Below are positions 3,978-24,702 of a stretch of 32,000 nucleotides of DNA, one piece after another. The stretch lies in assembly GCF_000423885.1 (NCBI RefSeq), contig NZ_AUIV01000002.1:1-32000 (forward strand). The letters are read 5' to 3'. The DNA is from Thermomonas fusca DSM 15424 (GTDB taxonomy: Bacteria > Pseudomonadota > Gammaproteobacteria > Xanthomonadales > Xanthomonadaceae). The notes beneath the pieces are model-generated. The model saw only the letters and a program-made list of their open reading frames with translations, ran no database searches and was not told the DNA's origin. How positions within the stretch are numbered: position 1 is the stretch's first letter; every line of letters starts with the position of its first letter. The position numbers and the translations under genes are program-made.

Positions 3978-4040
3978 ACGCCTGATAGCACGATAGTCCC
4001 ACGCCTGATAGCACGATACCCCGCACGCCTGATAGCACGA
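3978..4040 (+). repeat. Three direct 16-bp iteron-like repeats ACGCCTGATAGCACGA (3978-3993, 4001-4016, 4025-4040)
   Basis: Perfect 16-mers spaced 23 and 24 bp apart, lying between parA and repA. This is the classic iteron geometry next to a replication initiator gene. Confidence 0.65.
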
Positions 4041-4064
4041 CACCATCCACAGGCTTTCCCGGAG

Positions 4065-4922: not shown

Positions 4923-4948
4923 GGCGATGGCCTGCCGCGCGCCGTCGA

Positions 4949-5242
4949 TCAGCGCGCACGGCTGTCGGCCGAGTGGTGCTCGGCGTATTCGGGATCGGAG
5001 GTCGTCTCGAAACTGCGGTCGGCGGCCCAGGTGTCGAGGTCGGCCACGGCGTACATGACGCGCCGGCCGAACTTGCGAAAGCGCGGGCCGCCGCCGATCA
5101 CGCGCTGCTTTTCCAGCGTGCGCGGCGATAGGCGCAGGTACTCGGCGGCTTCGTCGTTGGTGAGATAGCGTTGGGGCTGCGGGGCAGCGGTCGAGGCAGT
5201 GGCCGAAACTGTTGCAGAGGGCCGCAAGGGAGCGGGACGCAT
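4949..5242 (-). CDS. Excisionase/MerR-type helix-turn-helix DNA-binding protein
   Basis: LTNDEAAEYLRLSPRTLEKQRVIGGGPRFRKFGRRVMYAVADLDTW is an HTH_17-like motif. GGAGG lies 8 nt upstream of ATG 5242. Confidence 0.7.
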   Translation of the reverse strand: MRPAPLRPSATVSATASTAAPQPQRYLTNDEAAEYLRLSPRTLEKQRVIGGGPRFRKFGRRVMYAVADLDTWAADRSFETTSDPEYAEHHSADSRAR

Positions 5243-5325
5243 GGTGTGAACCTCCATCGGTTGAAAACGCCCGGCCACACAGCGCAACCGGATGGAGGCA
5301 GTCTCAGAAGACGCGGCCCTTCTGC

Positions 5326-6099
5326 TCAGGGTCGTTTTGCGTTGCCTTCGAAACGGCCCTTCTCAAGCGGCGGAAGCTGTGCTAGGCAGCGATAGCCGTT
5401 GCGCATCAACGCATCGCCGCGCCGCACCAGGCGGCGCACCTTGGAGCGCAGGCCTCCGTCGGCGTACCAATCGGCCACAGCATCCGCACCGAATAAGCCT
5501 TCGCCAACCTCGCGCAAGGACGCGCCCGCAAGGGTTGCGTCGAGCGCCTGCAAGGTGTGCAGCTCCAGCAATGCGGCGGGCGTTGGCCGGGAATTGACGA
5601 TGAATAGGGCCGTGCCCAGCGAATGACTGCGCGCAGGCGCAACAGCACCGCCGCGATGGGCATAGGCGACGGCCATGCCGTCTTCCAGGCCGGGCGCCAG
5701 CGCGAAGCGCAAGCAATGGCCTGGGCTGCGAGCGATCAGCGCCAGCCCTTTGCCGTCGTGGAGCAGTTGCTTGTGGCCGGGAATGCGCCAGAACGCGAAA
5801 ACCGTGGCATCGAGTGGCGGATCGGCATCGGGATAGAGCTGCACCACAGCGGCATGGCCGGGCAACCAGGCTGGATGCGCGTCACGCGCGTCCAGCGCCG
5901 GATTTTCCAGCAGGCGCAGGCCCCAGCGATGCGCCGCTTGCTGTGTGCTTTCCGGTCGGCGATGGTGGCGCAGCCAGTCAAGGCGGTAATCGGGATGACG
6001 GCGCAGGTACTCCCAAGCCAGCGCGAGCGCGTCCAGCCACAAGACGTACAGGTAGGCCGCAGTCGGATACCAATGCGCGACGTGATGAGGATCGACCAT
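5326..6099 (-). CDS. DUF2285-type transcriptional regulator domain protein
   Basis: The N-terminal W..YLRRHP.YR motif and the C-terminal regulator region are typical of DUF2285 proteins of proteobacterial ICEs. Confidence 0.7.
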   Translation of the reverse strand: MVDPHHVAHWYPTAAYLYVLWLDALALAWEYLRRHPDYRLDWLRHHRRPESTQQAAHRWGLRLLENPALDARDAHPAWLPGHAAVVQLYPDADPPLDATVFAFWRIPGHKQLLHDGKGLALIARSPGHCLRFALAPGLEDGMAVAYAHRGGAVAPARSHSLGTALFIVNSRPTPAALLELHTLQALDATLAGASLREVGEGLFGADAVADWYADGGLRSKVRRLVRRGDALMRNGYRCLAQLPPLEKGRFEGNAKRP

Positions 6100-6423
6100 G
6101 ACGCCTCCTCCTGTGAACAGGAATCGCCGCCGCGTCAGGACTACGTGCTACATCGCCATCGTCCGAACGTCATGGGTGAAAAAGTTGGATAGGCGTTGGC
6201 AAGACCGATCGACTCCGAAGCGCTGCGGTTTCCGTCTCAATGCTGCGGCGGCAGCGCCCCGATCGTGGGACGCCGTACAGGCCAGCCTGGCGCAGCAGGC
6301 GCAGGAGATCATGACTATTTGGATCAGACTGACTGGGGTATGCCGCAACAATGCCGATTGAGACCGTCCCGGCATGACGTCAGACTGAAAAAGTCACAGT
6401 AGGCGGCGTCCCGCCGGCCGTAT

Positions 6424-6774
6424 TCAGTCCGGGATAGCTCCGTCATGCTCGGCCAGTCGGGTGTATTCCGCCAGCGTGCGCGTGGGCTGGAAATAGAGAT
6501 CGCGCATCACCGGCTGCTTGCGCGGCCCGACGATACAGGCCAGCTCGGACAGCTTGACGGTGCCTTGCGCCGGCATCCCGATCCCCAGGTCGATGAGACC
6601 CCAGGCGGTGTCGCCATCGGCGGGATCGAGCGCGGCCAATAGCCAGGTTATATGCGCGTCCGGCGTGAACAGTCGAACCACAGGCACCGGGTCGATGGTT
6701 TCGCCAGCGGCGCGGGCCTTGCCGTTGGCGAGCAGTTGCGCACGCTCCGAGTCGGTGGCAAGTGGCTGGGGCAT
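6424..6774 (-). CDS. DUF2958 domain protein (paralogue 1)
   Basis: Has VVRLFTPDAHITWLLAALDP.DGD.AWGLIDLGIGMP..G.V.LSEL. It is a clear paralogue of 15207..15557. ATG at 6774. Confidence 0.8.
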   Translation of the reverse strand: MPQPLATDSERAQLLANGKARAAGETIDPVPVVRLFTPDAHITWLLAALDPADGDTAWGLIDLGIGMPAQGTVKLSELACIVGPRKQPVMRDLYFQPTRTLAEYTRLAEHDGAIPD

Positions 6775-6953
6775 GGTCGGAAATCCCACAAGTCCAATGA
6801 TGCACGGATGCGGTTTCACGCCGAAGCGCAGAACCGCGAAACCGGATTTGCGCCTTCGTGCTCAAGCACGGATGCGCTTGCGTGGCTTTGCTGGAACCCG
6901 CCGATGCGGATTTCCGTAAAGTCACGAAACCGGAAAATAACATAAGATGAACA

Positions 6954-6974
6954 CTATAGATTGTAGCTCTATAG
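6954..6974. promoter_or_regulatory. Operator-like palindrome CTATAGA-N7-TCTATAG upstream of the XRE gene
   Basis: 7-bp perfect inverted arms in the AT-rich stretch 45-65 nt upstream of the GTG at 7018. Confidence 0.4.
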
Positions 6975-7017
6975 AGCGCAATAAGCTGTCATCTTGGTTT
7001 TCGAAGGGAAACCATAG

Positions 7018-7308
7018 GTGGCGGCTCGGTACTCATTGGCGAAGGCGTTGAAGACGGTCAGAAAAGCGCGGGGCTTGAGCCAAGAAGCGTTTTCGGACGT
7101 GTCGAGCCGCACCTACATGAGCACCCTTGAGCGCGACCTTAAAAGCCCGACCTTGAACAAGCTGGCCGAGCTGTGCAAGGTCATGGAAGTGCATCCGCTC
7201 ACGCTGCTGACGCTGGCCTATGCCGGGGACAGCACGAGCAAGGCCGAGGAGTTGTTGGCGCAGGTGCGCCGTGAACTTGAGGCGGTATTGAATTCAGATG
7301 GAGATTGA
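7018..7308 (+). CDS. XRE-family helix-turn-helix transcriptional regulator
   Basis: LKTVRKARGLSQEAFSDVSSRTYMSTLERDLKSPTLNKLAELCKVMEVHPLTLL is a canonical Cro/C1 HTH. GTG start with AAGGGA upstream. Confidence 0.8.
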   Translation: MAARYSLAKALKTVRKARGLSQEAFSDVSSRTYMSTLERDLKSPTLNKLAELCKVMEVHPLTLLTLAYAGDSTSKAEELLAQVRRELEAVLNSDGD

Positions 7309-7316
7309 GAAGCGCA

Positions 7317-7880
7317 ATGGCATATAGAAATGGAAACTACACCGCCTTTTATGTTGCAGAGCCATTCAATCCCAGCTCGCTGGGCGCCAATGCGACAAAA
7401 GATTTTCAGTATTATAATGTCCTGCGGATGTGGAAAGGCGCTGATGCGACGTTCCCCTTCGTCGATTCGCACGATAAAACATACAGTGTCCGTGATGGCA
7501 GCGATTGGGAATACACCCTGAAACCGAGACTTAGGGAACGCCTTCGGAACTCGAAGAACATCATCCTCATATTGAGTTCGATCACGACCAACTCCCGTGC
7601 CCTCCGAGAAGAAATCGACTACGGGATCAACGACCAGGGGCTACCCGTCATCGTCGTCTACCCTGAATATTCCACCAAGGAAAGCCTGCTTATCGGTGGA
7701 TCATTGAAGCAGGCTGTCAAGAACCTGTGGGAAAATCTTCCGGTGCTCCGGGATTCGATGAGCAAAGTTCCTACGCTTCATGTTCCGATGGACAAGGCGC
7801 TCATTAAGAGTGCCTTGCAGGATGGTGGATTCATGGTTGGGAGTAAGAAGACCCCAGATATCTATAGGTACAACCCATAA
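7317..7880 (+). CDS. thsB: TIR-like (DUF1863/ThsB-type) protein, putative Thoeris ThsB
   Basis: MAYRNGNYTAFYVAEPF.., NIILILSSITTNSRALREEIDYG..GLPVIVVYP (beta-strand, then Glu, then a second strand) matches ThsB-type TIR-like domains. Lies immediately upstream of the Macro-TM gene. Confidence 0.75.
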   Translation: MAYRNGNYTAFYVAEPFNPSSLGANATKDFQYYNVLRMWKGADATFPFVDSHDKTYSVRDGSDWEYTLKPRLRERLRNSKNIILILSSITTNSRALREEIDYGINDQGLPVIVVYPEYSTKESLLIGGSLKQAVKNLWENLPVLRDSMSKVPTLHVPMDKALIKSALQDGGFMVGSKKTPDIYRYNP

Positions 7881-7913
7881 TCATTTGGCACGTCGGAGCA
7901 AACGGCCCACGTC

Positions 7914-8750
7914 ATGGTGAAGGTCAACTTTTTTGACAAGCGGGTCATCAAGAAATTCCTTGAGGTCACCGCTGTCGTCAGCGGTACGCTGTCATTCGTG
8001 GTTATTTTTGTTGACGTCCCTGCCGAGTGGAAGCTGAAGGCTGGATTGGCTTTCTTGGCAATACTGGCACTCACCTACTTGGCGATATGGCTCTGGTCGA
8101 ACAACCTAAACAGTATCGACATCAATGTCGAGGGCAGCGATGTCGCGATCAAGACTGGCGATATTTTCCAGCAGCCTGGATTGAAGGCAATCGCCTTCAA
8201 TGAATATTTCGATACGCAGGTGGACAACAAGATAATTGGGGAGACTTCCCTCAACGGCGTTTTCATCCAGAAGCATCTCGGCGTCCCGCTCTCCGAGCTA
8301 GACCGTCACATCGAGGAATACGCTTTTGATAACAGCGAAGTCCTGGATGAAAACGAGGCCAGGAAACAGGGGAAGAAGAAAAGGTATCAGATTGGCACAA
8401 TCTGCCTATACAAAGACTACCTCCTGACCGCGTTCTCCAAGTTCGACGAGAACAACAAGGCGCTGCTGACAATGCCGGAGTACCTTGAGTTTCTCATCAA
8501 TTTCTGGGACAAGGTAAACAACATCTACGCCCAGCAAAGCGTATCTACCACGATCTTCGGTTCGGGAATAACGCGGATCAAGGGACACAAAAACATCTCC
8601 GACGAGGATCTCCTGAAGATAATGCTGTGGACGTTCAGAATCAGCGAAATGCGATTCAAGTACCCCGCGAAGCTGACCATCGTGATTCACGAAGACAAGA
8701 TTGACCAGATCAATCTTCTCGATATTAAATCCGCCAGGAACGGCGTGTAA
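7914..8750 (+). CDS. thsA: Two-TM plus Macro-domain protein, putative type II Thoeris ThsA
   Basis: Two hydrophobic helices (VTAVVSGTLSFVVIFV, AGLAFLAILALTYLAIWLW). These are followed by macro-like motifs GDIF..GLKAIAFNEYFD and STTIFGSGITR. Confidence 0.7.
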   Translation: MVKVNFFDKRVIKKFLEVTAVVSGTLSFVVIFVDVPAEWKLKAGLAFLAILALTYLAIWLWSNNLNSIDINVEGSDVAIKTGDIFQQPGLKAIAFNEYFDTQVDNKIIGETSLNGVFIQKHLGVPLSELDRHIEEYAFDNSEVLDENEARKQGKKKRYQIGTICLYKDYLLTAFSKFDENNKALLTMPEYLEFLINFWDKVNNIYAQQSVSTTIFGSGITRIKGHKNISDEDLLKIMLWTFRISEMRFKYPAKLTIVIHEDKIDQINLLDIKSARNGV

Positions 8751-8855
8751 TCTCCAATAGGAGTTCGGGGCGAACCTGCTGCTCATGGGTGCTGTCTGGG
8801 CAGGTACTGCATCAGCAGCACAGCGCCCCGCCGCGTGGGCGGGACGCTGCGGCGG

Positions 8856-9170
8856 TCACGCCGCCTGGGGCTTGCTGCGCGACCAGATCAGATCGTGCGT
8901 GCCGCCCTCGCCTTCGATCAGGCGGGCATAGACCGTGGCCGGGAACGAAGGATCGTCGAGGGTCACGGAGATGTACTCCCGCCCGGCCTCGCTGGTCTTC
9001 TTCCACGCCGCGCCGATGTCGTGGCCGGCGGCCTGCAGGCGGAAGTCCGGGGCCTTCTCGTTGTCCCCCTTGTCGTTGGGCACCAGCTTGACCTTGACGT
9101 TGAGCGTCAGGGTGCGAAGCGTGCCGGTGAAGCCGTCTTTGTCGGTGGCGAAGGTGCCGATGTTGGCCAT
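8856..9170 (-). CDS. DUF736 domain protein
   Basis: [32 protein letters not shown]...PDFRL is the DUF736 signature. AGGAG lies 7 nt upstream of ATG 9170. Confidence 0.85.
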
Positions 9171-9740
9171 GATGGATCTCCTTTCGGTTGAACAAGGTTC
9201 GCGCCCATCGCGTCCTTGTTGTGATCCGGCCGGCGGGGGACGGGCGGGCTGCACCGCTTGCGGCCGCAACGCTGTGGAGGGCCGGGAGGCGAAAAGAATT
9301 TGTCCCGCGAGGAATCTGCGCAGCAGAGGGGAAATTGTTTTCGCCGGACGGTTGCAGCCACGAAGCCCGAGGCGCAGCCGCGCCACCGCCAGGATTCACA
9401 ACGAGACAAGGATGCTTTGGGCCGAACCGCTCCGAAAGGAGATAGGGCCGGCTCGACATCCCCGCACGAATGCTTCTCCGGCTCGCACATTGACGCGGGC
9501 CAGGTCATTCCCCCAACGACAAGCGAGAACGCCCCTGCCGCACCTTGCGGCGCCGGTTTTGAGGCGTGGCGTGGAAGCTCCATAGCGATGCCGGGCGGGT
9601 TGTCCGTGAACCGTCCTTCGTGACGTGATGGGCAGGAACCGCCAGCGTCGAGGACGGTACGCATCCGCACAACCTGCCGGAGAAAGCGCCAGCGTGTTCA
9701 CCAGCACCCCGTCCCCTCGCCGCGGGGCGCTGGTCGGGCC

Positions 9741-9864
9741 GATCCAGCGCAGCCGGTTCGGCCGCATCGAGGGGCGCCAAGCTGTGCGCGGCGGGGATAG
9801 CCCGCAGGGCTTTCCCCTGGAGGCAAGTAGAGCGCGCAGCGCCGCAGGCGCGAAGGCGTGAGGG
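9741..9864 (-). repeat. Conserved about 120-nt leader block, copy A (homologous to 14741-14867)
   Basis: Near-identical core GGGGCGCCAAGC.TG.GCGCGGCGGGGATAG.CCGCAGGGCTTTCCCCTGGAGGCAAG, followed by a hairpin and GCGCGAAGGC. Confidence 0.6.
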
Positions 9865-10062
9865 ATTGGAGCCGAATGGCCGTGACGACAAAGACGGCAC
9901 GGGGCGCAGCCCGCAAAGCCCGGCGGTGCAAGGCACCGACACGCCCAGGAGCGTCGCAGCATCATTCTGCCATATGCGCAACAAATATATTTGGCGCACA
10001 AAACATCATTTTCATGCAAAAATATCGACCATCATGCACAACATAGCCAACTGAGGTGAATC

Positions 10063-10728
10063 ATGACCTTCCGAGCAGATGAAGCAGCACGCGCCGGGTA
10101 CGAGGAAGTGGAGAAGTACCTTGTCCCCCGTCCCCGGGACGCCGATGAGGCCCAGCGGGCGCGAAGCAGGAGGGCGCTAGAGGACATAGCTGACGGGCTG
10201 GGGCCAGTCGTTGACCGATACCCTTCGTGGCATCCGCTGGTGCGCAATCACGATAGCCGCCATCCCGTCACCGTCCCCAGCGATCGTTGCGGCTACAAGG
10301 GGCTGGATCACACGAGGTTCTTCGTCAACGGATTCATCACCTGCCCGTATGGTGATGGCCAAGAGGTTTTAGATTCCGTTCTGGCACTTCCCCGCCACCA
10401 CGCGGCCTACATCACGGCGGAAAAGCTGGATGTGCAGTTCTACAACCCGCAGACGACGCCCATTCTGGTCAAGTGTCATTGGGAAGAACTTTTCCCAGAC
10501 CACATGATTCCGCTGTCTGTCGCTGTCCCCCTGCTTCTGGAGAAGGAAGTCCCCTGCTGGACGTGGTCGCAAGTCGCCGAGACCTGGGAGTCGATGCGCT
10601 CGTATTTCCTGGGTGCGCCTCACGGTGCCCGGTCATCGCTGTTCGTAAGCCAGGAAACTGGACAAGGCATCAAAAAGGTCTGGGAGACGCTGATCTACAC
10701 AGGGATGTTTGGCCCGATCAAGGTGTGA
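10063..10728 (+). CDS. Hypothetical protein (221 aa), no family recognised
   Basis: Clean ORF with GAGGTGA 5 nt upstream of the ATG, an AT-rich promoter-like region upstream and a strong terminator downstream. Its orientation is opposite to the ICE backbone. Confidence 0.6.
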   Translation: MTFRADEAARAGYEEVEKYLVPRPRDADEAQRARSRRALEDIADGLGPVVDRYPSWHPLVRNHDSRHPVTVPSDRCGYKGLDHTRFFVNGFITCPYGDGQEVLDSVLALPRHHAAYITAEKLDVQFYNPQTTPILVKCHWEELFPDHMIPLSVAVPLLLEKEVPCWTWSQVAETWESMRSYFLGAPHGARSSLFVSQETGQGIKKVWETLIYTGMFGPIKV

Positions 10729-10820
10729 TGGACGCAACGAGGCATCTCAAGTGATACGCCAACGCCGCCTGCGCATAAGCGTAGGCAGCGGCGTTCTCGT
10801 TCGGCTGTTGGCCTTGAACA

Positions 10821-10852
10821 CCGGGCGCGGCCACTGCCGCGCCCGGATTTTT
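10821..10852 (+). terminator. Rho-independent terminator of 10063..10728
   Basis: Perfect 11-bp stem CCGGGCGCGGC / GCCGCGCCCGG with loop CACT, followed by ATTTTT. Confidence 0.75.
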
Positions 10853-10902
10853 GCGCCCACCGCGCCCAGGACGGAGCGGCCTGGGCGCGGTGCTGATCGC
10901 GG

Positions 10903-11082
10903 CTATTCCTTCGTCTCGATGATCCACCACACGGCCCGCGCCAAGGCGCAGCCCGTGACGGGGTGAATGTCGGTGAGGTCGGCGTATGCCGTCCAGCCCG
11001 AGGGCGGACGATAGCCGCACACGTCGCCTTCGCCGTGCCAGCGGCGGGCGCGTACCGTGCCGGGGGCGTAGATCGCCGCCAT
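10903..11082 (-). CDS. Possible small protein (59 aa) downstream of the ParB-like gene
   Basis: ORF MAAIYAPGTVRARRWHGEGDVCGYRPPSGW... Its composition is less Arg/Ala-biased than the surrounding spurious frames. There is no convincing RBS. Confidence 0.3.
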   Translation of the reverse strand: MAAIYAPGTVRARRWHGEGDVCGYRPPSGWTAYADLTDIHPVTGCALARAVWWIIETKE

Positions 11083-11170
11083 GCGCGGGCGGCTGGTGGT
11101 GGTGTGGGTGGCGGTTCTCCTTCTAGCGAAGCGCCTCGGTCGGGGCCGGGGCGCTTCCCTTCGGCGCGGG

Positions 11171-13246
11171 TCAAGCGGCCAGCGCCTCGGCGGGTTCATC
11201 CGCCATTGCTTCTGCATCCTCCGGGGCGTCCTGCTCCGGGCCTTCTTCCTGCGCGCCTTGCTGCGTTGCCTGCTGCGGACCTGCGACCTTGAAGATGGCG
11301 GGCATCCACCCCGTGCCATCCGCCAGCCGTTCGGCTTCGCTGGCAATGTCGGCCTTCTTGAGCTTCGCCAGCCGGTTGACCTGCTCGGGCGCGTACTCGC
11401 CCACGGCATCCAGAATCACGGCCTTGGAAACGTGCTTGAAGTAGCCTTCTGCGGTTGGCTTCCACCATGCGGCCATATCGAGGCCCACGGCCTGCGCCAG
11501 TTCCTCGCCGCGTTGGTGCGTCGTGGCGCGGGGCGTCACCACGTCCACCGTTGCGGCAACGCATACCGCCAGCAGGCGTACCAGCTCGTCTTGCGGCTTC
11601 GCCAGCAGCACGGCGAACAGTTCGGCGCTGTCCTCCGGCAAGCCTTCACCGGCCACCTGTTGCAGTTCGCGCAGCGCCACGGCGGCAAGCGATTGCGGCC
11701 AGTCCGGGGCCATGCCTTCCAGTCGGTCTTGCACCGTGAGGCGCACGCCCAGCGGCAGATTGTGGCCGTAATGGCTCCCCTGCAAGACAGTCTGCACCAT
11801 GCCATGCACCACGGCAGCCAGCGCCGCTTGCGGATGCCGGGCCACTTCGATTTGCAGCGCGGCGGTGCGATGGGCGCTCAACCGTTGCGCCAGCCGGTCG
11901 GACATGGCTGCGGTCTTGGGCTGACTGTCGTCGTCTCCGTCCTCGCCTTCGTCATCGTTATCGGCATCCTCGCCGCCGGAACCTTGCCGCAGCCGTTCCA
12001 GCGTGCGCAATGCCTTGGCCTCAGCCTCGCGCATCAGGCCGCGATGAATGACGGCCTCGCCATTACGGTCGATGGTGACGATGGCACCGGCTGCAGCCTT
12101 CACGTTCGAGCCGTAGCCTTGCAAACTATCTTCCAGCGCCTGCAACTGCTCGCCCAGGGCTTCGCCTTCCTCCTGCAAGGCGTCGGCCTTATCCTCGTCG
12201 TCGGCATCCATCGCCGCATCCACGGCTTCACCGATGGCCCGCATCTTCTCCTGCAGCCGCTCGATGCGCTGCGCCTCGCGCTTGGACGGCTCGCGCCGTT
12301 CCCTCGGTGCGCGCTGGAAGACGTGCAGGTCGGCATGGGTCACGCCCGGCGTGGCATCCACCCAGGCCCAGCCCTCGGCCTTCACCTCGGCGGCAATGCC
12401 CGCCAGCCGGTCTTGTGCCAGCTTGTCCAGCAGCGCGGAATCGATCAGATACACGCCCGCGTCACCTTCCGCGAACAGGTCACGGCGCACGCCACCGCCT
12501 GCGGCTTCGTAGGTATCCAGTCCCACGAATCGCACCAGCGGGTGCCGGTTCGCGTCAATCTCGCGCTCGGTGAGGCGTTCGCGCAAGTTGGACGGGTGCC
12601 GCTGCCAAGTCGGCGCATCGTAGAACGCGCTTTCCTGCGCGGCGTGGTCGTCGGTGATGGCAAGGGCCATCAATTGATCGAGTGTGACGGCATCGGCGCG
12701 ATAGTCGGCCATCAGGCGCGGCGAGACGTTCGCCAGCTTCAAGCGGCGCTGCACCACCAGCGGCGTCACGCTGAAATCCGCCGCAATGTCCTCGATGGGC
12801 CGACCTTCGGCCACCAGCGCGGCGAACGCCTCGAACTGGTCTGCCGCGTGCATGGCTTCGCGCTGCACGTTCTCGGTGAGGCTGGCGGTACGGGCGGTGC
12901 CATCGGCTACCAGCAGGCAAGGCACCTCCCAATCTTTGGCGATGCGGTGCTTCTTTGCCAGTAGCTTGAGGGCTGCGAAGCGACGGCCACCTGCCACGAC
13001 TTCGTAATGCTCGCCATCGGCGGCGGCGATTACGATCAGGTTTTGCAGCAAGCCCACGCGCTGAATGGACGCGGTCAGTTCGGGGATGGACATGCGCGGG
13101 GTCTTGCGCACGTTGCGCCCCGTGGGGCGCAGCACCAGCCGCGACAGGGGAACCAGAATCAGGTTCTTGCTCGGGTCGGCGGCTTCCAGCGGAATAGCGG
13201 CGGCGGTGTTGATGGCGCGGGCTTCGGTTTGGGTAATGGCGTTCAT
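11171..13246 (-). CDS. ParB/Spo0J-family N-terminal domain protein with long acidic C-terminal extension (691 aa)
   Basis: Has LVLRPTGRNVRKT...IQRVGLLQNLIV...YEVVAGGRRFAALKLL (ParB box) and TENVQRE. GGAG lies upstream of ATG 13246. Confidence 0.85.
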   Translation of the reverse strand: MNAITQTEARAINTAAAIPLEAADPSKNLILVPLSRLVLRPTGRNVRKTPRMSIPELTASIQRVGLLQNLIVIAAADGEHYEVVAGGRRFAALKLLAKKHRIAKDWEVPCLLVADGTARTASLTENVQREAMHAADQFEAFAALVAEGRPIEDIAADFSVTPLVVQRRLKLANVSPRLMADYRADAVTLDQLMALAITDDHAAQESAFYDAPTWQRHPSNLRERLTEREIDANRHPLVRFVGLDTYEAAGGGVRRDLFAEGDAGVYLIDSALLDKLAQDRLAGIAAEVKAEGWAWVDATPGVTHADLHVFQRAPRERREPSKREAQRIERLQEKMRAIGEAVDAAMDADDEDKADALQEEGEALGEQLQALEDSLQGYGSNVKAAAGAIVTIDRNGEAVIHRGLMREAEAKALRTLERLRQGSGGEDADNDDEGEDGDDDSQPKTAAMSDRLAQRLSAHRTAALQIEVARHPQAALAAVVHGMVQTVLQGSHYGHNLPLGVRLTVQDRLEGMAPDWPQSLAAVALRELQQVAGEGLPEDSAELFAVLLAKPQDELVRLLAVCVAATVDVVTPRATTHQRGEELAQAVGLDMAAWWKPTAEGYFKHVSKAVILDAVGEYAPEQVNRLAKLKKADIASEAERLADGTGWMPAIFKVAGPQQATQQGAQEEGPEQDAPEDAEAMADEPAEALAA

Positions 13247-13310
13247 GGTGTATCTCCAATCGAATGAAACAAGGAATGGAGGGGAAACCGCCCCTCCGGC
13301 GGGGGACGGA

Positions 13311-14138
13311 TCAGGCTTTGAGGGCGCGCATGCCATCGGCCAGCAGCCACAGGGCGCGGTTCAGACGGATGTTTTGGTCAATGCCCTGCACCGGGCGCGT
13401 GCTCTGCCTGCGGCCATTCGCGGCGCGGCCATGCAATCCGCCCTTGGTCAAGTTTTCCTGCGTGCGGTTGAACACGCTCCACAGGTCGGGGCGACGGTCG
13501 TCGAACCGGCGCGGCATCAGGATTTGCGATTCGGTGATGGGCGCAGGCTTGTCCGGGTCGTCGTACTTGAGGGACAGCGCGGCGCGGGCGAACACTTCGG
13601 ATTCGCCATCGTCCAGCGTGATGCCGCGCATCAGGTCGCGCGATGCCTTCACCTGCTCGAAGCCGCCCAACACTTGATAAGCGCCTTCGATGACGTGTCC
13701 GGCCACGTCGCCTTTGTGGGGCACGCGCACATCGGCCACGGTGTCGCCGCAGACAAGGCCATTGCTGCAAACGAAACGGAACATCCCGGCCAGCATCTGA
13801 TAGCTGCTCGTCCCGTCATGGGAATTCAGGAGGACGATTTCATTGGCTTCCGCGCCGTTGATCTGGCTGGCGTGGCGCAGGCGCAGCATGTGTTTCGTGT
13901 GCTCGCGCTTGCCTTCATCGCGCACGCGGGTCTGCGTCACCATGAAAGGCTGGAAGCCTTCTTTGCGCAGTTCGGTCAGCACGGCGGCGGTGGGGATGTA
14001 GCTGTACCGCTCGGAACGGCTCTCATGTGGGGCGTCCGCGAAGATGGACGGGGCCACGCGGCGGATTTGGTCATCGGACAGCGGGGAGTCGCTGCGCAGC
14101 GACGGGGAGCGGGAAGCGAAACGGGATGCGAGTTGCAT
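13311..14138 (-). CDS. DUF932 domain protein
   Basis: Has YSYIPTAAVLTELRKEGFQPF.V.Q...., LLNSHDGTSSYQMLAGMFRFVCSNGLV, and a GGAGA RBS before ATG 14138. Confidence 0.85.
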   Translation of the reverse strand: MQLASRFASRSPSLRSDSPLSDDQIRRVAPSIFADAPHESRSERYSYIPTAAVLTELRKEGFQPFMVTQTRVRDEGKREHTKHMLRLRHASQINGAEANEIVLLNSHDGTSSYQMLAGMFRFVCSNGLVCGDTVADVRVPHKGDVAGHVIEGAYQVLGGFEQVKASRDLMRGITLDDGESEVFARAALSLKYDDPDKPAPITESQILMPRRFDDRRPDLWSVFNRTQENLTKGGLHGRAANGRRQSTRPVQGIDQNIRLNRALWLLADGMRALKA

Positions 14139-14329
14139 GATCTTTCTCCTGACAAAAAAGGGGGTTGCTGTTCACACCGCACACCGGATTCCAAGATTCG
14201 GAGCCCAGCCTTTCGGCTGTTCGGTGCGGTCGGCACGAAGAACCCGGTTGGCCTCGTTGCCACCGTCTTTCCTGAGTTCATCGCCCGCGACGGTCAGGAG
14301 CGCGCGGACGGGGGCCGTCAAGGAAACAA

Positions 14330-14867
14330 GCGCAGGGTGGGTGCGGCCCGCAGGCGCAGCCGAGGACACGGCCCTGCGCGCCTTGACGGCACATGGCCGC
14401 GGGCTACAGTCGCGAGCAAGGTGATGGAGTCAGGGGAGACGGCTGAACAGGCAACGGCCATCCTGTGCGCCGACCGCATGGCAAGCGAAGCGCGCAGGCC
14501 CGGATCTGGAAGCCGGGCCGGAGACGTCAGCCGAGCGGAGCGAGGGAACGATGGAAGCCCGACATGGGGCGAGACGCCGCAGGTGGCTCGATGCGCAGCA
14601 CGACAGCGCGACCGGCCATGTTTCTTGGCCGGGGACGCCCAGACTGCAATCCTCAACGAACACCACGCCCAGGACGGCCCTCATGCGCAAAGCATCGAGG
14701 AGCGGCCTCTGCTGCTGGAACTGCGATTGGTATATGGCCGATCCGGCGCATCCGGTTCGGCGGTCTTTGAGGGGCGCCAAGCCTGCGCGGCGGGGATAGG
14801 CCGCAGGGCTTTCCCCTGGAGGCAAGCGAAGCGCGGAGCGCCCCGTCAGGGGCGCGAAGGCTTCAGG
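14330..14867 (-). repeat. Structured leader element copy B (upstream of DUF932). 14330-14640 is homologous to copies C/D and 14741-14867 to copy A.
   Basis: Shared blocks ..CCTTGACGGC.., ..GCAAGCG.AGCGCGCAGGCC..CCGGAG.CGTCAGC.., ..GGCTCGATGCG.AG.ACGACAGCGCG..GGACGCCC, with hairpins of differing sequence at equivalent positions. Confidence 0.55.
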
Positions 14868-15141
14868 CCGAGTCGTCAGGACGCAGGGTGGATTCCGAAA
14901 CCGGCATCCACGGCGAGCACGAGTTCAGCAGATAGCGCGCGCCGCGCGCGTACAGCCCCGAAGGTTCGGCAGGTCGGTAGAACCCGGTAACGCGGCGCCG
15001 GAACTGCAAGCCGGCATCGTTCGTGTAAATCACCGCGTCGCCGATCTTGAAGCGCAAAGGCTGGCCGTTCTCCGGCGCGAATGGCTTGAGTTCATCGTGC
15101 TGCGCTGTGATTTCAATGATGTAGTCGTGATGGCTGCTCAT
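14863..15141 (-). CDS. Hypothetical ICE backbone protein (92 aa)
   Basis: Starts MSSHHDYIIEITAQHDELKPF.. with AGGAAA upstream of ATG 15141. Non-biased composition. Confidence 0.55.
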   Translation of the reverse strand: MSSHHDYIIEITAQHDELKPFAPENGQPLRFKIGDAVIYTNDAGLQFRRRVTGFYRPAEPSGLYARGARYLLNSCSPWMPVSESTLRPDDSA

Positions 15142-15206
15142 GGCATTGATTTCCTGTAACGGTTGAGAAAGTGCAAGGAGCGCCTTGCGGCGCTCCAAGG
15201 GCCGGG

Positions 15207-15557
15207 TCAAACGACGACCCGCCCAGCCAGGCGCGCATCGCGCGCATAGGCGCTCAAGCGCTTCTCGGCGCCGAACGACAGGTCACGCTCAATCGGCAGG
15301 CCCAGCCCACCGCGCACAGTCGCCAACTCGCCCAGGCTGACCCAGCCAAGTTCCTGCATCCCCAAGCCCAGGTCGCATAAGCCGAAGGCGTGATCGTGGT
15401 CGTCGGGATCAATCTCGGTCAGCAGCCAGGTCGCGCCGGCGTCCGGCGTGAAAAGCTTGACTACGGGCTCCGGATCGAAGTCCGGGTTTTGCAAGGATTC
15501 GCGGCCATTGGCCAGCAGCATCACGCGCTGCTCATCGGTGATGAGTGCGTTGTTCAT
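15207..15557 (-). CDS. DUF2958 domain protein (paralogue 2)
   Basis: Has VVKLFTPDAGATWLLTEIDPDD.DHAFGLCDLGLGMQELGWVSLGEL, and GGAG 7 nt upstream of the ATG. Confidence 0.85.
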   Translation of the reverse strand: MNNALITDEQRVMLLANGRESLQNPDFDPEPVVKLFTPDAGATWLLTEIDPDDHDHAFGLCDLGLGMQELGWVSLGELATVRGGLGLPIERDLSFGAEKRLSAYARDARLAGRVVV

Positions 15558-15579
15558 GGTGAACTCCTGAAGATTGCCG

Positions 15580-15792
15580 GGCGGAATTGCCCGTCACCTC
15601 CGGGTCACGGCGCAGCGCAAGCGGTCAGGGGTCGAAGACGGCCGGAGGCCGCCAGCGTGCTTGCACGCGCAGCCCTTGACGGCGAGAACGCCGTGGCACG
15701 ATGAAGGGAACAGCAAGACCGCCCCACCCCACCACCCACGCAGACCTGCCTTCGGCAAGTGCGCAGCACGCGCAGGCCCGCGAGGGCCGGAG
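15580..15792 (-). repeat. Structured leader element copy C (upstream of DUF2958 paralogue 2)
   Basis: About 200 nt collinear with 16366-16568, running from GGCGGAATTGCC to GGCCGGAG. Confidence 0.55.
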
Positions 15793-15811
15793 TTGCACCG
15801 CTGGGCGGAGC

Positions 15812-15834
15812 AAAAAAAGGGGGCCGAAGCCCCC
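15812..15834 (-). terminator. Rho-independent terminator of radC
   Basis: On the minus strand: GGGGGC-TTCG-GCCCCC followed by TTTTTTT, starting 4 nt after the radC stop. Confidence 0.8.
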
Positions 15835-15838
15835 GTGG

Positions 15839-16345
15839 TCAGAGCAGGCCACATTCGGCGAATGACGTAGTGACTGCGCCACCCACGACGATGTGATCCA
15901 GCGTGCGCACGTCCACCAGCGCCAGGGCCTCCTTGAGGCGCTGGGTCAGTACCCTGTCGGCCTGGCTCGGCTCGGGACTCCCGCTCGGATGATTGTGCGA
16001 AAAGACCACCGCTGCCGCGTTGAGCCGCAGGGCCTCCTTCACCACCTCGCGCGGATACACCGATGCCTGGTCGATGGTGCCGCGGAACAGTTCCACATAC
16101 TCGATCAGCCGATGCTGGCTGTCGAGGAACAGCGCCGCGAAGACTTCGTGCCCGAAGCTGGCCAGCTTGGTGCGCAGGTAGTCCTTGACCAGCGCCGGCG
16201 AAGTGAACAGCGTTCCGCGTGGGTTCTTCAGATCGATGACCTGGCGTGCCGCCGCCAGAATCTGGTCCGCCGACGCCTGCAGGTAACGGCCCTGCGCGTC
16301 ACGCACCAGCAGCGAAGAATCGAGAGACAGAGAAAGTTGCGACAT
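15839..16345 (-). CDS. radC: RadC-like JAB/MPN domain protein
   Basis: Has EVFAALFLDSQHRLI....LFRGT...SVYPREVVKEAL..NAAAVVFSHNHPSG.PEPS.AD, a JAMM motif. Confidence 0.9.
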   Translation of the reverse strand: MSQLSLSLDSSLLVRDAQGRYLQASADQILAAARQVIDLKNPRGTLFTSPALVKDYLRTKLASFGHEVFAALFLDSQHRLIEYVELFRGTIDQASVYPREVVKEALRLNAAAVVFSHNHPSGSPEPSQADRVLTQRLKEALALVDVRTLDHIVVGGAVTTSFAECGLL

Positions 16346-16365
16346 GATCGTGCTCCGGTTGCTCA

Positions 16366-16653
16366 GGCGGAATTGCCTGGAACCGGCCGCAACACGGCGC
16401 AGCGCAAGCCGTCACAGGGTCGAAGACGGCTACGGCCGCAAGCGCCAAAGGCGCGCAGCCCTTGACGGCGAGAACGCCGTGATACGGTGAAGGGAACAGC
16501 AAGACCGCCCTCCCCGCCCACGCTGACTGACTGGGCAAGCGGAGCGCGCAGGCCTGACCAGGCCGGAGGCGTCAGCGATGGACGCCCGTAGGGGCGAGAT
16601 GCCAAGAGCGGCTCGATGCGAAGTACGACAGCGCGTCCCGTTCGGGGACGCCC
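16366..16653 (-). repeat. Structured leader element copy D (upstream of radC)
   Basis: 16366-16568 is collinear with copy C, and 16543-16653 is collinear with copy B (14481-14640). Confidence 0.55.
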
Positions 16654-16741
16654 TGAAATCGGGTATCTTTAGAGCCAACAGATTCCCGAATTGGGTCTCG
16701 CCCGGTCTGATAGTCAGAACACCGCAATTGCGAGGAAAGGC

Positions 16742-17884
16742 ATGCCAGCGCTATATCAACTTGCCCTGCTCGGCACCCCAACGGCAGCTCAAATTTCCGA
16801 ACTTGAGGAAGTTGTCGGAAAGGCTGTCGGCATGTTCAATTTGCGGTTGGGGCATGAGATTGGATGGGAGGTTTGTCCCGATGAATTCAATCCAGACCAA
16901 CAGCGATCGTCTGCGGCGGCATTTTTCGGAGGTCATGAGCCTCCCCTTGCGAATGTGGCAAGGCTCCTGGCGCGAGGCATCCCGCTGCTCCCAGTCGCCT
17001 CTGACATCAATCGAGTCGGCGCAGAAATCCCCGCCTTGCTGCAACCGCTCAACTGCTTGGCATACACCGCTGGCGGGGCGCAACGTGTCGCAACTGCTTT
17101 GCTGGAATGTGCAGGGCTCCTTCCTCGACAGCGCCGGGTGTTCGTAAGCTATCGGCGGGGCGAGGCTAGGGAAGCTGCCTTGCAGTTGTTCGATGCGCTG
17201 TCTGCTCGGCTATTCGATGTGTTTCTCGATACACATGGCATTCCACCTGCTGAAGATTTTCAGACCATGCTATGGCATCGGCTTTGTGACTCGGATGTCC
17301 TGCTGATGCTCGACACCCCAGGATACTTTGAAAGCCGTTGGACGAGTGCGGAATTCGGCCGCGCTCTGGCCAAAGGCATCAGCGTCTTGCGGGTGGGGTG
17401 GCCGGATACAACGCCTTCTGCGCGTACGGCGACGGCCAGTCGGGCGGAACTGCTACCCGAAGAAGTCGATCCGGCGACCGGACGCATCGCAGACGGCGCG
17501 GTGGATCGCATCTGTCTTCAGTTGGAGGAAGTTCGCAGCCAGAGCCATGCGGTTCGCTCTGTCAATCTCGTGAGCAATCTGCGCAACGCTATTCAAACAA
17601 TCGGCGGCCAAGTTGTCGGAGTGGGCGCCAACAGAGCTGTTTATGTCCAACTGCCGGATGGGCGGAATGTAGTTGTTTATCCAACAGTCGGAGTTCCCAC
17701 GTCAACTACATTGCACGATGCGTCTACGAATTCACCGGAACAATCCGTTGCCGTTGTCTACGATCACGTAGGCCTGCATCCTAGGTGGCTGGGCCATCTG
17801 GACTGGCTGGGTCAGCACATTCACTCCGCCAGGTGGGTTAAAGCCAGCGAGGCGGGTTGGCAATTCGCTGACTGGGCGGCGTAG
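16742..17884 (+). CDS. TIR-domain protein (380 aa) with unassigned N- and C-terminal regions
   Basis: The central RVFVSYRRGEAREAALQLFDAL....VFLD....., DVLLMLDTPGYFESRWTSAEFGRALAKGISVLRV gives the TIR strand-helix pattern with an S-x-W-x-x-x-E glutamate. GAGGAAAGG lies before ATG 16742. Confidence 0.8.
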   Translation: MPALYQLALLGTPTAAQISELEEVVGKAVGMFNLRLGHEIGWEVCPDEFNPDQQRSSAAAFFGGHEPPLANVARLLARGIPLLPVASDINRVGAEIPALLQPLNCLAYTAGGAQRVATALLECAGLLPRQRRVFVSYRRGEAREAALQLFDALSARLFDVFLDTHGIPPAEDFQTMLWHRLCDSDVLLMLDTPGYFESRWTSAEFGRALAKGISVLRVGWPDTTPSARTATASRAELLPEEVDPATGRIADGAVDRICLQLEEVRSQSHAVRSVNLVSNLRNAIQTIGGQVVGVGANRAVYVQLPDGRNVVVYPTVGVPTSTTLHDASTNSPEQSVAVVYDHVGLHPRWLGHLDWLGQHIHSARWVKASEAGWQFADWAA

Positions 17885-17886
17885 CC

Positions 17887-18474
17887 ATGAGCGCAATATT
17901 CCTCTCGGCCAGCGTGCCACTTGTTGGACGTGGCACCTACCACGAAACTGCCAATCCATTTCTCATCCAATGTGCGGTGAGAGAACTGGTCATAGCAGTC
18001 ATTCGCCAGCACAAGATCGTCTGGGGTGGGCATCCTGCGATTACCCCGATGATTTGGAGCATATGTGAAGACTTGGGCGTCGATTACTCGCAGTCTGTCG
18101 TCTTGTATCAGAGCACGTTCTTTGCAGATGTGTTCCCTGAAGAGAACAAGCATTTCCAGAATGTAGTTTTCACTGACGCTGTCCCCAATGACAAGGCGGC
18201 GAGCTTGCTTGTCATGCGTGAAAAGATGCTCTCGCGTGCGGACCTAAGCGCTGCTGTGTTTATTGGTGGAATGGATGGGGTAGAAACCGAGCATGAGCTT
18301 TTCAGGCGATTCCATCCTGCAGCCAAGGTGCTCCCGGTGTCCTCGCCGGGCGGAGCGGCGTTGAATCTAGCCAAGGACCATGGCTATTTCACCGGTGAAG
18401 CGCTCGTTGATGTGGACTTCGCTCAGCTCTTCCATACGCACCTGGCGGTGCCCTTGGCTGGCAAACCAAGTTAA
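17887..18474 (+). CDS. SLOG/LOG-superfamily Rossmannoid protein (TIR-associated SLOG, TPALS-like)
   Basis: Has IFLSASVP.., VWGGHPAITP and VFIGGMDGVETEHELF (the GGxxGxxxE signature). The ATG is 2 nt after the upstream stop. Confidence 0.65.
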   Translation: MSAIFLSASVPLVGRGTYHETANPFLIQCAVRELVIAVIRQHKIVWGGHPAITPMIWSICEDLGVDYSQSVVLYQSTFFADVFPEENKHFQNVVFTDAVPNDKAASLLVMREKMLSRADLSAAVFIGGMDGVETEHELFRRFHPAAKVLPVSSPGGAALNLAKDHGYFTGEALVDVDFAQLFHTHLAVPLAGKPS

Positions 18475-23445: not shown

Positions 23446-24702
23446 TCAGGCCATTGCGCTCAACACCGGCACGATCACGTTGTCCGGCATCAGCTTCGGC
23501 ACATAGGTCTGCCCGTCGATCCAGGCATCGACCATGTTGGCCCACTCCTGCAGCATGTGGCGCCGCTGCTCGGCGTACTCGGCCTTGTTGTAGATCGAGC
23601 GCGAGGAACGCCCTTCTTCGTGCGCAAGGCACTTCTCGATCCAGTCTCGGTTGAACCCGATCTCGTTGAGCAACGTCGAACCTGTGCGGCGCAGATCGTG
23701 GACGGTGAACGGCTCCAGCGGCAGGCCTGCGGCCTTGGCCCGCTGCGCCACGATCTGCGTGACCCGATTGAGAGTCGCGTGAGACATGCAATGGTCTGAG
23801 TCGTAGCGCGATGGCAGCACAAACTTCGAGCCGGCCGCGCAAGTGTGCAGTGCCACCAGAATGTCCAGCGCCTGGCGCGACAGGTAGACCACATGTGGGT
23901 TGCGCCCCTTCATCCGCTGCTTCGGGATGGTCCAGGTCGCGTTCTCGAAATCGACCTCGTCCCAGGTGGCCTCGATCAGCTCGCTCTTGCGTACCAGCGT
24001 CAGCAGGATCATTCGCAACGCCAGCCGGATGGTCGGATAGGTGGCCACCGACTCCATCTGCCGCGACATCAGACGGATCTCCAAGGGCGACAAGGCACGG
24101 TCCTTGGGCACGAAGGTCGCAATCGACGCAGCGCCCACGTTGGCCGCCGGGTTGTCCACCTTCTCCCCATGCAGGATGGCGAAGGCATAGACCTGCTTCA
24201 CGATGTCGCGAATGTGCACCGCGGTGGCCGGGGCGCCCCGCCCTTTCACCTTGCCGCACAAGGCGCGCAAGTCGTCGGCGGTGATTTCGTTGAGCAGGCG
24301 GTTCTGGAAGGCCGGCAGGATGTCCCGATCGACGATGCTCTTGCGCATCGCTCGCGTGGTGTCGGCCATCCGGGCACCGGCCATCCACTGGGCGGTCATG
24401 TCGCCGAAGTTCTTGGCGGCGGTCAGGCGGCGCTTCTCGCGCTGCTTCTCATGCGCCGGGGACTTGCCCTGGGCGACGGCCTTCTTGGCGTCCAGCAGCT
24501 TTTCGCGGGCCATCGCGAGCGAAATGCCGGACGGCCCATACCGTCCAATGGTCAGCGTCTCGCGCCGGCCGTTGAGACGGTAATCGTAGCGGAAGGTGAC
24601 GGTACCGGTGGTTGATACCGTTACGTACATGCCGTCGCGGTCGGAAGCCTTGTAAATCTTGGACTTAGGCTTGAGATTGCGTAGTGCGGTGTCGGTAAGC
24701 AT
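23446..24702 (-). CDS. int: Tyrosine recombinase/integrase, P4-like (DUF4102 N-terminal domain)
   Basis: Has MLTDTALRNLKPKSKIYKASDRDGMYV.V...G...FRYDYR..GRRETLTIGRY, and C-terminal HDLRRT...L and LAHE....YN catalytic-region motifs. Confidence 0.92.
   Translation of the reverse strand: MLTDTALRNLKPKSKIYKASDRDGMYVTVSTTGTVTFRYDYRLNGRRETLTIGRYGPSGISLAMAREKLLDAKKAVAQGKSPAHEKQREKRRLTAAKNFGDMTAQWMAGARMADTTRAMRKSIVDRDILPAFQNRLLNEITADDLRALCGKVKGRGAPATAVHIRDIVKQVYAFAILHGEKVDNPAANVGAASIATFVPKDRALSPLEIRLMSRQMESVATYPTIRLALRMILLTLVRKSELIEATWDEVDFENATWTIPKQRMKGRNPHVVYLSRQALDILVALHTCAAGSKFVLPSRYDSDHCMSHATLNRVTQIVAQRAKAAGLPLEPFTVHDLRRTGSTLLNEIGFNRDWIEKCLAHEEGRSSRSIYNKAEYAEQRRHMLQEWANMVDAWIDGQTYVPKLMPDNVIVPVLSAMA

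Follow-up and report, generated by a model that had tools for sequence, protein, structure and literature searches.

The 32-kb window analysed here, the whole stretch from position 1 to 32,000 of contig NZ_AUIV01000002.1 of Thermomonas fusca DSM 15424 (64% G+C), carries the left part of an integrative and conjugative element (ICE) of the Tn4371 family that adjoins guaA. The ICE backbone lies on the minus strand and includes genes for the relaxase, TraF, ParA, RepA, a DUF736 protein, ParB, a DUF932 protein, a DUF2958 protein, RadC and the integrase, all oriented towards the origin of transfer (oriT). Three of these genes are preceded by long leaders, which are the subject of this study and are read on the minus strand like the genes that they precede. 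Leader B (14139–14862) lies upstream of the DUF932 gene (13311–14138; Pfam PF06067, E = 6e-56), leader C (15558–15838) upstream of the DUF2958 gene (15207–15557; PF11171, E = 6e-42) and leader D (16346–16690) upstream of radC, which encodes a RadC-like JAB protein (15839–16345; PF04002, E = 2e-44).

Three related leaders in the ICE backbone

The leaders align collinearly with each other in blastn comparisons (E 3e-5 to 6e-23), and these comparisons together with a repeat search located all four of the shared blocks that a first-pass annotation of the sequence had reported. Leaders C and D are 90% identical over 70 nucleotides (nt) (15666–15735 and 16452–16521), and B and D are 81% identical between 14566–14613 and 16591–16638. 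The block GGCAAGCG(A/G)AGCGCGCAGGCC is found at 14480–14500, 14821–14841 and 16534–16554, and GGCGGAATTGCC at 15580–15591 and 16366–16377. A repeat match (D1) at 10946–10972 is inside a gene for 59 amino acids (aa) and was set aside as coincidental. Small hairpins of fixed position and variable sequence, also described in the first-pass annotation, are present as well, but they belong to far longer imperfect inverted repeats that had been overlooked, at 14265–14440 in B, at about 15604–15698 in C and at about 16391–16484 in D.

The view of three leaders without coding potential, each serving a separate unit, had to be adjusted. The leaders themselves are real, but a conserved 92-aa gene without a Pfam match (14863–15141, minus strand; 79–94% aa identity in about 50 loci) separates DUF2958 from leader B, which therefore serves DUF932 only. 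The arrangement of one leader per unit holds for radC, DUF2958 and DUF932; the ParB_N gene (721 aa; 11171–13336, minus strand) overlaps the end of the DUF932 gene and is probably co-transcribed with it. That radC ends in its own intrinsic terminator was borne out by a terminator scan, which found the stem GGGGGCTTCGGCCCCC at 15819–15834 (minus strand) followed by T7; this terminator is kept in radC-carrying loci. A small open reading frame (ORF), 14281–13976, overlaps DUF932 out of frame; it was rejected as an explanation for the leader, as its ATG, although otherwise conserved, is ACG in Paraburkholderia copies.

Conserved copies of the leaders occur in 80 genomes of Beta- and Gammaproteobacteria, collected via the DUF2958 protein, and in a metagenome set of over 100 contigs, which makes more than 180 related loci overall. 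At the sequence level they are at least as well conserved as the neighbouring coding DNA. An nhmmer profile of the core shared by C and D identified 131 copies in the 80-genome loci, one to three per locus. All 131 are co-oriented with the downstream gene, which is radC, DUF2958 or a gene for a 130-aa protein, and the B-type copies recovered likewise share the orientation of the gene downstream. The base of the hairpin is 20–150 nt from the start codon of that gene. Neither the B nor the C/D profile revealed a further copy in the window.

Such elements are also present in arrays of co-oriented small genes on Burkholderia-type plasmids, including genes for DUF3560-methyltransferase and PAPS-reductase-domain proteins. 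Paraburkholderia dioscoreae plasmid pI, which came up in a BLAST search of plasmids, includes five B-type elements within 12 kb (1289–11144; 11 in the record) that are about 70% identical, and each of them precedes co-oriented small genes, e.g. for a DUF3560-methyltransferase. This array looks like a leading region organised by B-type elements. Matches of 92% identity on IncHI-type and Pseudomonas megaplasmids were not kept as independent contexts: the one inspected belongs to an ICE of this family that has integrated into an IncHI-type Enterobacter plasmid, and the others are presumed to be the same.

Long hairpins with promoter-like boxes

The long inverted repeat of leader B (14265–14440, 176 nt) folds, as plus-strand DNA, into a single imperfect hairpin with a minimum free energy (MFE) of −63.3 kcal/mol, a z-score of −7.86 and a centroid identical to the MFE structure. 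The sense strand of the same segment reaches z = −3.95 as DNA and −4.03 as RNA. In two distant lineages the plus strand again exceeds the sense strand (−6.97 vs −5.89 and −4.67 vs −2.33). The B element is 91–97% identical in 74 loci, and the hairpin is retained in lineages of about 70% identity. Its gene-proximal arm (14265–14325) pairs with 14381–14440, and the two arms enclose an apical domain (14326–14380) that is nearly invariant in 44 unique ICE copies and has an ultra-conserved core at 14340–14371.

A promoter scan found a single sigma-70-like site in the leader region, TTGACG-16-TACAGT, which matches 9 of 12 consensus positions and lies on the gene-distal arm of the hairpin, on the plus strand. 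The −35-like TTGACG (14383–14388), found by both the scan and a pattern search, is fully base-paired and stands beside the apical domain. The −10-like TACAGT (14405–14410), 16 nt after it, faces a 4-nt bulge and a mismatch on the gene-proximal arm, and a bulge of 5–6 nt is present on the distal arm at about +1. In the whole window, on both strands, the pattern TTGAC-N16–18-TAnnnT has two matches (0.39 expected by chance); they are the sites of leaders B and D, and both are on the plus strand.

These boxes are constant among homologues, which were drawn in part from a metagenome scan with a pattern of 21 nt that covered the −35 and the apical stem and excluded the −10, and that returned more than 100 contigs. 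TTGACR-16-TAnnnT is present on the antisense arm of 100 out of 100 unique homologues with 48 distinct spacers, the −35 having been part of the metagenome pattern; the −35 is also retained in Paraburkholderia copies that were found by BLAST. The −10 hexamers seen are TACAGT, TACGGT, TACGAT, TAAGGT, TAACGT and TACCGT. On the sense arm TTGAC is present in 99 copies, and TAnnnT follows it at 15–18 nt in none of the 100. Judged by sequence, this is the classical mark of sigma-70 recognition: TTGAC and TAnnnT at a fixed distance, an invariant T, A and final T, and a spacer that varies. The strand that carries it is antisense to every surrounding gene. The irregularities of the duplex around the −10 are conserved across homologues too, and the first T of the −10 forms a G:T pair with the opposite arm in 26 of 28 representatives.

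Those 28 B representatives, less than 93% identical to each other, were used to look for covariation with RNAalifold and a pair counter. Covariation between homologous regions, which the first-pass annotation had proposed as a check, was found for the B hairpin. RNAalifold recovered the hairpin with 39 pairs, 13 of which show compensatory changes; among them are the pairs facing the first four and the last three positions of the spacer (alignment columns 45–47/146–148 and 55–58/136–139). The cells of the alignment that should pair do so in 94.0% of cases, as compared with 87.8% after shuffling, a level that none of 500 shuffles reached, and with 39–50% when the partners were slid. Doubly changed cells number 68, against 23 in shuffles, and the covariation score is 0.260 against 0.151.

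Which of the two strands is under selection can be read from the pairs that are not Watson-Crick. G:T pairs on the plus strand occupy 96 cells at 19 positions, while A:C pairs, which would be G·U in the sense RNA, account for 10 cells, at 8 positions. As a control, the flanking genes were examined at their third codon positions; there the two types of transition were found in 289 and 334 cells (80 and 107 columns), respectively, and since this control has no such bias, the wobble bias of the hairpin is not mutational (Fisher's exact test on positions, p = 0.006). The consensus fold is also better in the antisense than in the sense orientation (−49.9 vs −29.8 with RNA parameters, −18.7 vs −9.8 with DNA parameters), and the sense-orientation fold loses the basal helices of the hairpin. 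Both results indicate that the nucleic acid selected for folding is mainly the plus strand, rather than the mRNA. A comparison of raw MFE between the strands was discarded as a test of this: the antisense strand is more stable in 101 of 101 copies, yet coding DNA behaves in the same direction, because the antisense strand is rich in G and T. The strand test was therefore based on composition-controlled z-scores and on the substitution-type control. For the upstream part of the leader (14441–14862) the strand asymmetry of folding energy is indistinguishable from the composition control.

Leaders C and D carry a second, weaker type of hairpin, about 95 nt long. The consensus fold of the C leader on the sense strand yields small hairpins only, with almost no covariation, and this led to a search for long-range inverted repeats. 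With nhmmer and RNAalifold a C-type element was delimited at 15578–15725 (plus strand; helices 15606–15612/15689–15695 and 15624–15631/15673–15680, tip hairpin 15655–15668) and a D-type element at 16364–16511 (plus strand; helices 16393–16399/16475–16481 and 16411–16419/16459–16466, tip hairpin 16442–16454). When the alignment is folded in the antisense orientation, the helices CACGGCG/CGCCGTG and GTCAGGGG/CCCTTGAC are recovered along with a tip hairpin that covaries. Among 65 unique copies the proximal arm varies, while the distal arm (GCCCTTGACGGCGAGAACGCCGTG-R-Y-ACGRTGAAGGG...), which carries the consensus TTGACG-15-TGnYACGRT, hardly changes. In D, where the site came up in the pattern search of the window, this is TTGACG, a 15-nt spacer with an extended −10 TG, and TACGGT (16462–16488, plus strand). 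In C it was read from the sequence as TTGACG, a 15-nt spacer ending in TG and one base (G), and CACGAT (15676–15702, plus strand).

Covariation is seen in these elements too. The −10 hexamer starts with C or T, and this base covaries with a G or A of the opposite arm (GC 32, AU 19, GU 7). The helix GTCAAGGG/CCCCTGAC covaries as well, with GC in 38 sequences and AU in 7, and seven sequences replace it by GTCAATGA/TC(T/A)TTGAC. The predicted duplex ends at about −12, with the remainder of the −10 single-stranded, a layout that resembles a fork-junction template.

Between these long hairpins and the ribosome-binding site lies a small one, CGGGC-AATTCC-GCCCG (15578–15593, minus strand; D copy at 16364–16380), which adjoins that site and is the predicted 5′ stem-loop of the DUF2958 mRNA. 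One of its pairs is CG in 34 and UG in 8 sequences on the sense strand, an asymmetry opposite to that of the long hairpin; such sense-strand U·G wobbles are expected if the small hairpin is the 5′ stem-loop of an mRNA. Transcripts of C and D are predicted to start just before it and the Shine-Dalgarno sequence, at about 15594 and 16380. For B, the position of the −10 and the pairing ladder place a putative +1 at about 14285–14292. The predicted transcribed DUF932 leader (14139–14290, minus strand) opens with the block CGATGAACTCAGGAAAGACGG, which no other stretch of the locus matches in conservation; the segment is 96–99% conserved, above the coding sequence.

The probable transferred strand and putative single-stranded DNA promoters

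The oriT-like core of the ICE lies in the traF–traI intergenic region at 1472–1505 (plus strand) and consists of the inverted repeat GACGCGGC-CCGGT-GCCGCGTC followed by CTTTTGTCTTGCC. The oriT of ICEKKS102Tn4677, another ICE of the Tn4371 family, was mapped experimentally to the traF–traI spacer, and its essential core is a conserved 20-mer with CAAAAGG beside an inverted repeat (PMC11448139). The region at 1472–1505 matches this arrangement, and on the plus strand the inverted repeat is 5′ of CTTTTGTCTTGCC. Characterised oriTs have the repeat on the 5′ side of the nick, as read on the strand that is cut, and the relaxase gene is the last to enter. From this rule and the position of the inverted repeat we infer that the plus strand is likely to be the nicked, transferred strand, leading with traF and proceeding rightwards via repA, DUF736, ParB, DUF932, DUF2958 and radC to int. 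The leader-bearing genes point to the oriT region that was experimentally defined for the family, with the nicked strand taken from the position of the inverted repeat, and the putative transferred strand is the template for all minus-strand backbone genes. Leading-region genes templated by the transferred strand are an architecture described for plasmids (PMC11541004).

Taken together, these data make it fairly probable, in our judgement, that the leaders carry single-stranded DNA (ssDNA) promoters similar to Frpo and ssi but of a separate sequence family, which would drive DUF932/ParB, DUF2958 and radC upon entry and may also serve as primers. We hold this with more confidence for B than for the proposal as a whole, and with less for C and D. 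During conjugation, the plus strand would enter the recipient 5′ to 3′ from oriT at about 1.5 kb as the template of the backbone genes, and each leader in it would fold into a long imperfect hairpin. The gene-distal arm would provide the non-template strand of a sigma-70 promoter with the −35 TTGACG in clean duplex beside the apex, while the −10 (TACAGT in B, TGaTACGGT in D, TGgCACGAT in C), located where the duplex is irregular or ends, would be partly pre-melted. The host RNA polymerase would start on the gene-proximal arm, the template, and leave through the base of the hairpin into DUF932–ParB, DUF2958 or radC, and the transcripts may additionally prime synthesis of the complementary strand. 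Once the element is double-stranded there would be no hairpin; the boxes would then face away from the genes, and expression of the genes from them would cease. In line with such a role, a stable stem-loop on the putative transferred strand was found for B, as were −35 and −10 boxes within the stem opposite a gene-proximal arm that could act as template (distal arm of 100 out of 100 copies, sense arm of none). The helices of C and D were recovered from alignment and not by energy.

A folded ssDNA promoter of the Frpo type was one of the two explanations offered in the first-pass annotation, and it is the better supported one, given the conserved boxes on the distal arm and the compensatory pairing, although the leaders have no sequence similarity to Frpo. 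Blastn searches of the window with Frpo1 and Frpo2 of plasmid F and Frpo1 of ColIb-P9 gave chance matches only (E ≥ 0.15), none of which lies in a leader. Like Frpo1 and Frpo2 and ssi1–3 of ColIb-P9/pESBL (class 1, ssp1), the ICE hairpins are long imperfect stem-loops of the (here putative) transferred strand that would rebuild a −35 and a −10; they are present in several copies in a leading region (again putative here), each upstream of co-oriented establishment genes; and a dual role as primers is plausible for them too. The genes served are partly the same. In plasmid F, early expression of ygeB/ygeA and of ssb-yfjA-yfjB-psiB depends on two Frpo copies that are 92% identical and 5 kb apart (PMC9849209). 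In the annotated F record ygeA encodes a DUF932 protein and yfjB a member of the ParB/RepB/Spo0J family (genes at 12439–13260 and 7539–9497), a pair that also lies downstream of element B in the ICE. In contrast to Frpo, the ICE elements are GC-rich and have neither an A/T-rich apex nor a UP-like element, their hairpins are shorter (176 nt in B and about 95 nt in C and D, compared with about 280 nt), and they reside on an ICE of Beta- and Gammaproteobacteria. They also match the linear sigma-70 consensus better, as the same scan yields no site in F Frpo2. For this reason F Frpo2 was dropped as a positive control for the linear scan; the geometry of the F boxes, which the sequence left unconfirmed, was not relied on.

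Further classes of ssDNA promoter, non-homologous to Frpo, lie upstream of leading-region operons in pESBL and F and were validated by 5′ rapid amplification of cDNA ends (RACE): class 2 (ardA/klcA) and class 3 (M.EcoGIX) (PMC12672017). With them, the known ssDNA promoters divide into several classes of unrelated sequence; like them, the ICE hairpins are non-homologous to Frpo and stand upstream of genes of a putative leading region. In contrast to the ICE hairpins, however, classes 2 and 3 have starts confirmed by 5′ RACE and reside on enterobacterial plasmids (PMC12672017). Identity of the ICE elements with either class is unlikely, judging by G+C content and hosts rather than by a comparison of sequences. 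A full-text search of the literature retrieved no paper in which ssDNA promoters are discussed prominently in connection with integrative and conjugative elements. In view of this and of the lack of similarity to Frpo, we file the elements as functional analogues: most likely, they work like ssDNA promoters without being members of the Frpo family, and represent a previously undescribed sequence family in ICEs of GC-rich bacteria.

Several observations weigh against this proposal. The transferred strand of Tn4371 ICEs is taken here from a general oriT rule only. The folding energy of C and D is insignificant (z = −0.1 for C and −1.3 for D, the latter as plus-strand DNA), so that the case for these two comes from comparative and motif evidence; their boxes depart from the B pattern by a 15-nt spacer and, in C, by the hexamer CACGAT; and their strand asymmetry is weak, with the antisense strand favoured in 58 of 65 copies with DNA parameters and no difference with RNA parameters. 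The raw energy asymmetry is partly compositional. The 32-nt apical core CCGTGTCCTCGGCTGCGCCTGCGGGCCGCACC (14340–14371) is 90–100% identical on plasmids of Phaeobacter, Paracoccus, Leisingera and Roseobacter; in these Rhodobacterales copies (one at 3006–3037) it is upstream of a DUF3560 gene and the flanking stem covaries, but no −35 or −10 is recognisable, and the core may for that reason have another or an additional function. The boxes would make a respectable promoter in duplex DNA as well and may act there in the antisense direction, and the upstream halves of the leaders, with their U boxes (the repeated motif described below) and small hairpins, fall outside the proposed model.

One alternative, an ordinary double-stranded promoter that fires antisense, appears improbable to us. 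Its non-coding RNA would run across the upstream portion of the leader as well as the 3′ end of the upstream gene and would silence the backbone genes, either through transcriptional interference or as an antisense RNA that pairs with their transcripts. TTGACG-16-TACAGT with its 9 of 12 consensus positions would work in duplex DNA, the downstream plus-strand sequence with its U boxes and GC hairpins is conserved, and such a promoter could coexist with the ssDNA role after conversion to double strand. It leaves unexplained, however, why the promoter and even its variable spacer keep compensatory complementarity to an arm about 60–100 nt away and why G:T pairs are tolerated on the plus strand only; moreover, a scan found no terminator-like site downstream on the plus strand, and an RNA starting at about 14417 would exclude the hairpin. 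Much the same doubt applies to structured 5′ untranslated regions (UTRs), in which the sense RNA would regulate translation or stability in cis, riboswitch-like or by binding a protein. This was the other explanation of the first-pass annotation, which had pointed to the radC RNA motif. Like the ICE leaders, the radC and STAXI motifs are conserved non-coding elements with structure; they precede radC-type, integrase and anti-restriction genes, and a role in single-stranded DNA has been suggested for such motifs. However, neither the whole window nor the leaders alone gave a covariance-model match at E ≤ 10 to radC or STAXI: a search of Rfam 15 with the whole window had no match at the gathering score, 9 kb searched at E ≤ 10 gave none in the leaders, the 2.6-kb region searched by itself at E ≤ 10 gave none in them either, and a chance match to the radC terminator was the sole hit. 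The sense RNA of the B hairpin is nevertheless more stable than shuffled sequences (z = −4.0), the hairpin beside the ribosome-binding site in C and D has its wobbles on the sense strand, the highly conserved DUF932 5′ UTR past the hairpin has a slight folding advantage on the sense strand, and read-through transcripts would include all of these structures. Against a cis-acting RNA stand the better antisense fold, the wobble ratio of 96:10 in favour of the antisense strand (neutral 289:334) and the loss of the basal helices of B in the sense orientation. Spaced −35 and −10 boxes on the antisense arm with variable spacers would serve no purpose in an RNA leader, and scans found no sense-strand sigma-70-like promoter upstream, past the radC terminator. 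The claim of a radC-type RNA is thus unsupported.

A rather remote alternative is that the hairpins are initiation or processing signals of single-stranded DNA, such as priming sites, replication roadblocks or protein sites at the apical core, with no role in gene expression. This would suit the near identity of the apical core from Rhodobacterales plasmids to Burkholderiales ICEs, with no evident boxes in the former, and the long hairpin of the DUF736 leader, which has no boxes either; the ssDNA promoters of F, too, prime complementary-strand synthesis and stall conversion (bioRxiv 10.64898/2026.01.09.698686). A TAnnnT at a fixed 16 nt, however, is a sigma-70 signature that would be superfluous for a purely structural signal, and the elements always lie directly upstream of a co-oriented gene, close to its start codon. 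Least credible of all, and in our opinion very improbable, is an origin as selfish or neutral intergenic repeats, of the repetitive extragenic palindrome (REP) or miniature inverted-repeat transposable element (MITE) type, without a role for the ICE. GC-rich, palindromic, multi-copy and intergenic the leaders certainly are, yet REP or MITE sequences would be dispersed in both orientations and independently of gene starts, and here every copy is co-oriented with the backbone genes, the positions are conserved across 80 genomes, conservation is equal to or above that of coding DNA, and the copies reside on ICEs and plasmids, with none dispersed in the chromosomal part of the window.

ssDNA promoters explain how establishment and anti-defence genes of plasmids are expressed within seconds of entry, and to our knowledge they have been demonstrated so far only in F-like and IncI plasmids of enterobacteria. 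If the proposed role of the ICE hairpins is correct, the mechanism would extend, through a distinct GC-rich family, to integrative elements such as Tn4371-type ICEs and to Burkholderia-type plasmids, through which catabolic, resistance and defence genes are disseminated among Beta- and Gammaproteobacteria. A paired arm with TTGACR-16-TAnnnT would then be an in silico signature for leading regions and for the direction of transfer, and the DUF932, ParB-like, DUF2958 and RadC-like proteins would form a conserved set expressed early. The comparative set is unusually clean, with 100 variants, a fixed spacing and covarying arms, which makes the idea directly testable. A bolder version strikes us as doubtful, if conceivable: that these are widespread, so far unrecognised ‘flip’ promoters of Proteobacteria, in which the hairpin drives DUF932/ParB, DUF2958, radC and orphan methyltransferases, the same boxes shut them off in antisense after conversion, and the apical core docks a universal factor that couples transcription to priming.

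Other structures and genes in the window

The upstream parts of leaders B and D contain further repeats. In B (14441–14862) small GC hairpins accompany U boxes at 14480–14500 and 14821–14841 (plus strand) along with repeats and block matches, and the segment 14736–14842 recurs at 9737–9843. In D (16512–16690) a U box at 16534–16554 is followed by hairpins at 16555–16568 and 16634–16652 and by the block shared with B (16591–16638). The U box, GGCAAGCG(A/G)AGCGCG(C/G)AG on the plus strand, is found in addition at about 15750–15778 and at 9836–9850, and always has as its neighbour, within the upstream half of the leader, a GC hairpin whose sequence varies.

The DUF736 gene has a leader of its own (9176–9445; the real start of the gene is probably at 9171) that forms a hairpin of about 270 nt, the base of which includes the ribosome-binding site. 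Its z-score is about −4 on both strands, the TTGAC...TAnnnT motif is missing from it, and it may represent another type of structure in the leading region. The region between the ParB operon and this leader contains an insertion (9990–10728) with a low-GC ORF (10063–10728, plus strand) that has no Pfam match and an AT-rich upstream region, and is probably cargo.

Directly after ParB lies the 59-aa gene mentioned above (10903–11081, minus strand, without a Pfam match), followed by two strong GC hairpins (10826–10901). From there the minus-strand backbone continues, from right to left, with DUF736, a second DUF2958 gene, a block of HTH_17, RepA, ParA, RHH, DUF2840 and TraF genes and finally the relaxase gene (start at 1330). 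At the other end of the backbone the integrase gene occupies 23446–24702 (minus strand). Cargo genes of the defence type lie on the plus strand: a TIR_2 protein followed by a SLOG (LD_cluster3) protein are encoded at 16691–18474 and a ThsA_Macro protein at 7914–8750. As they are on the strand opposite to the backbone, these defence genes would be unreadable from the incoming strand.

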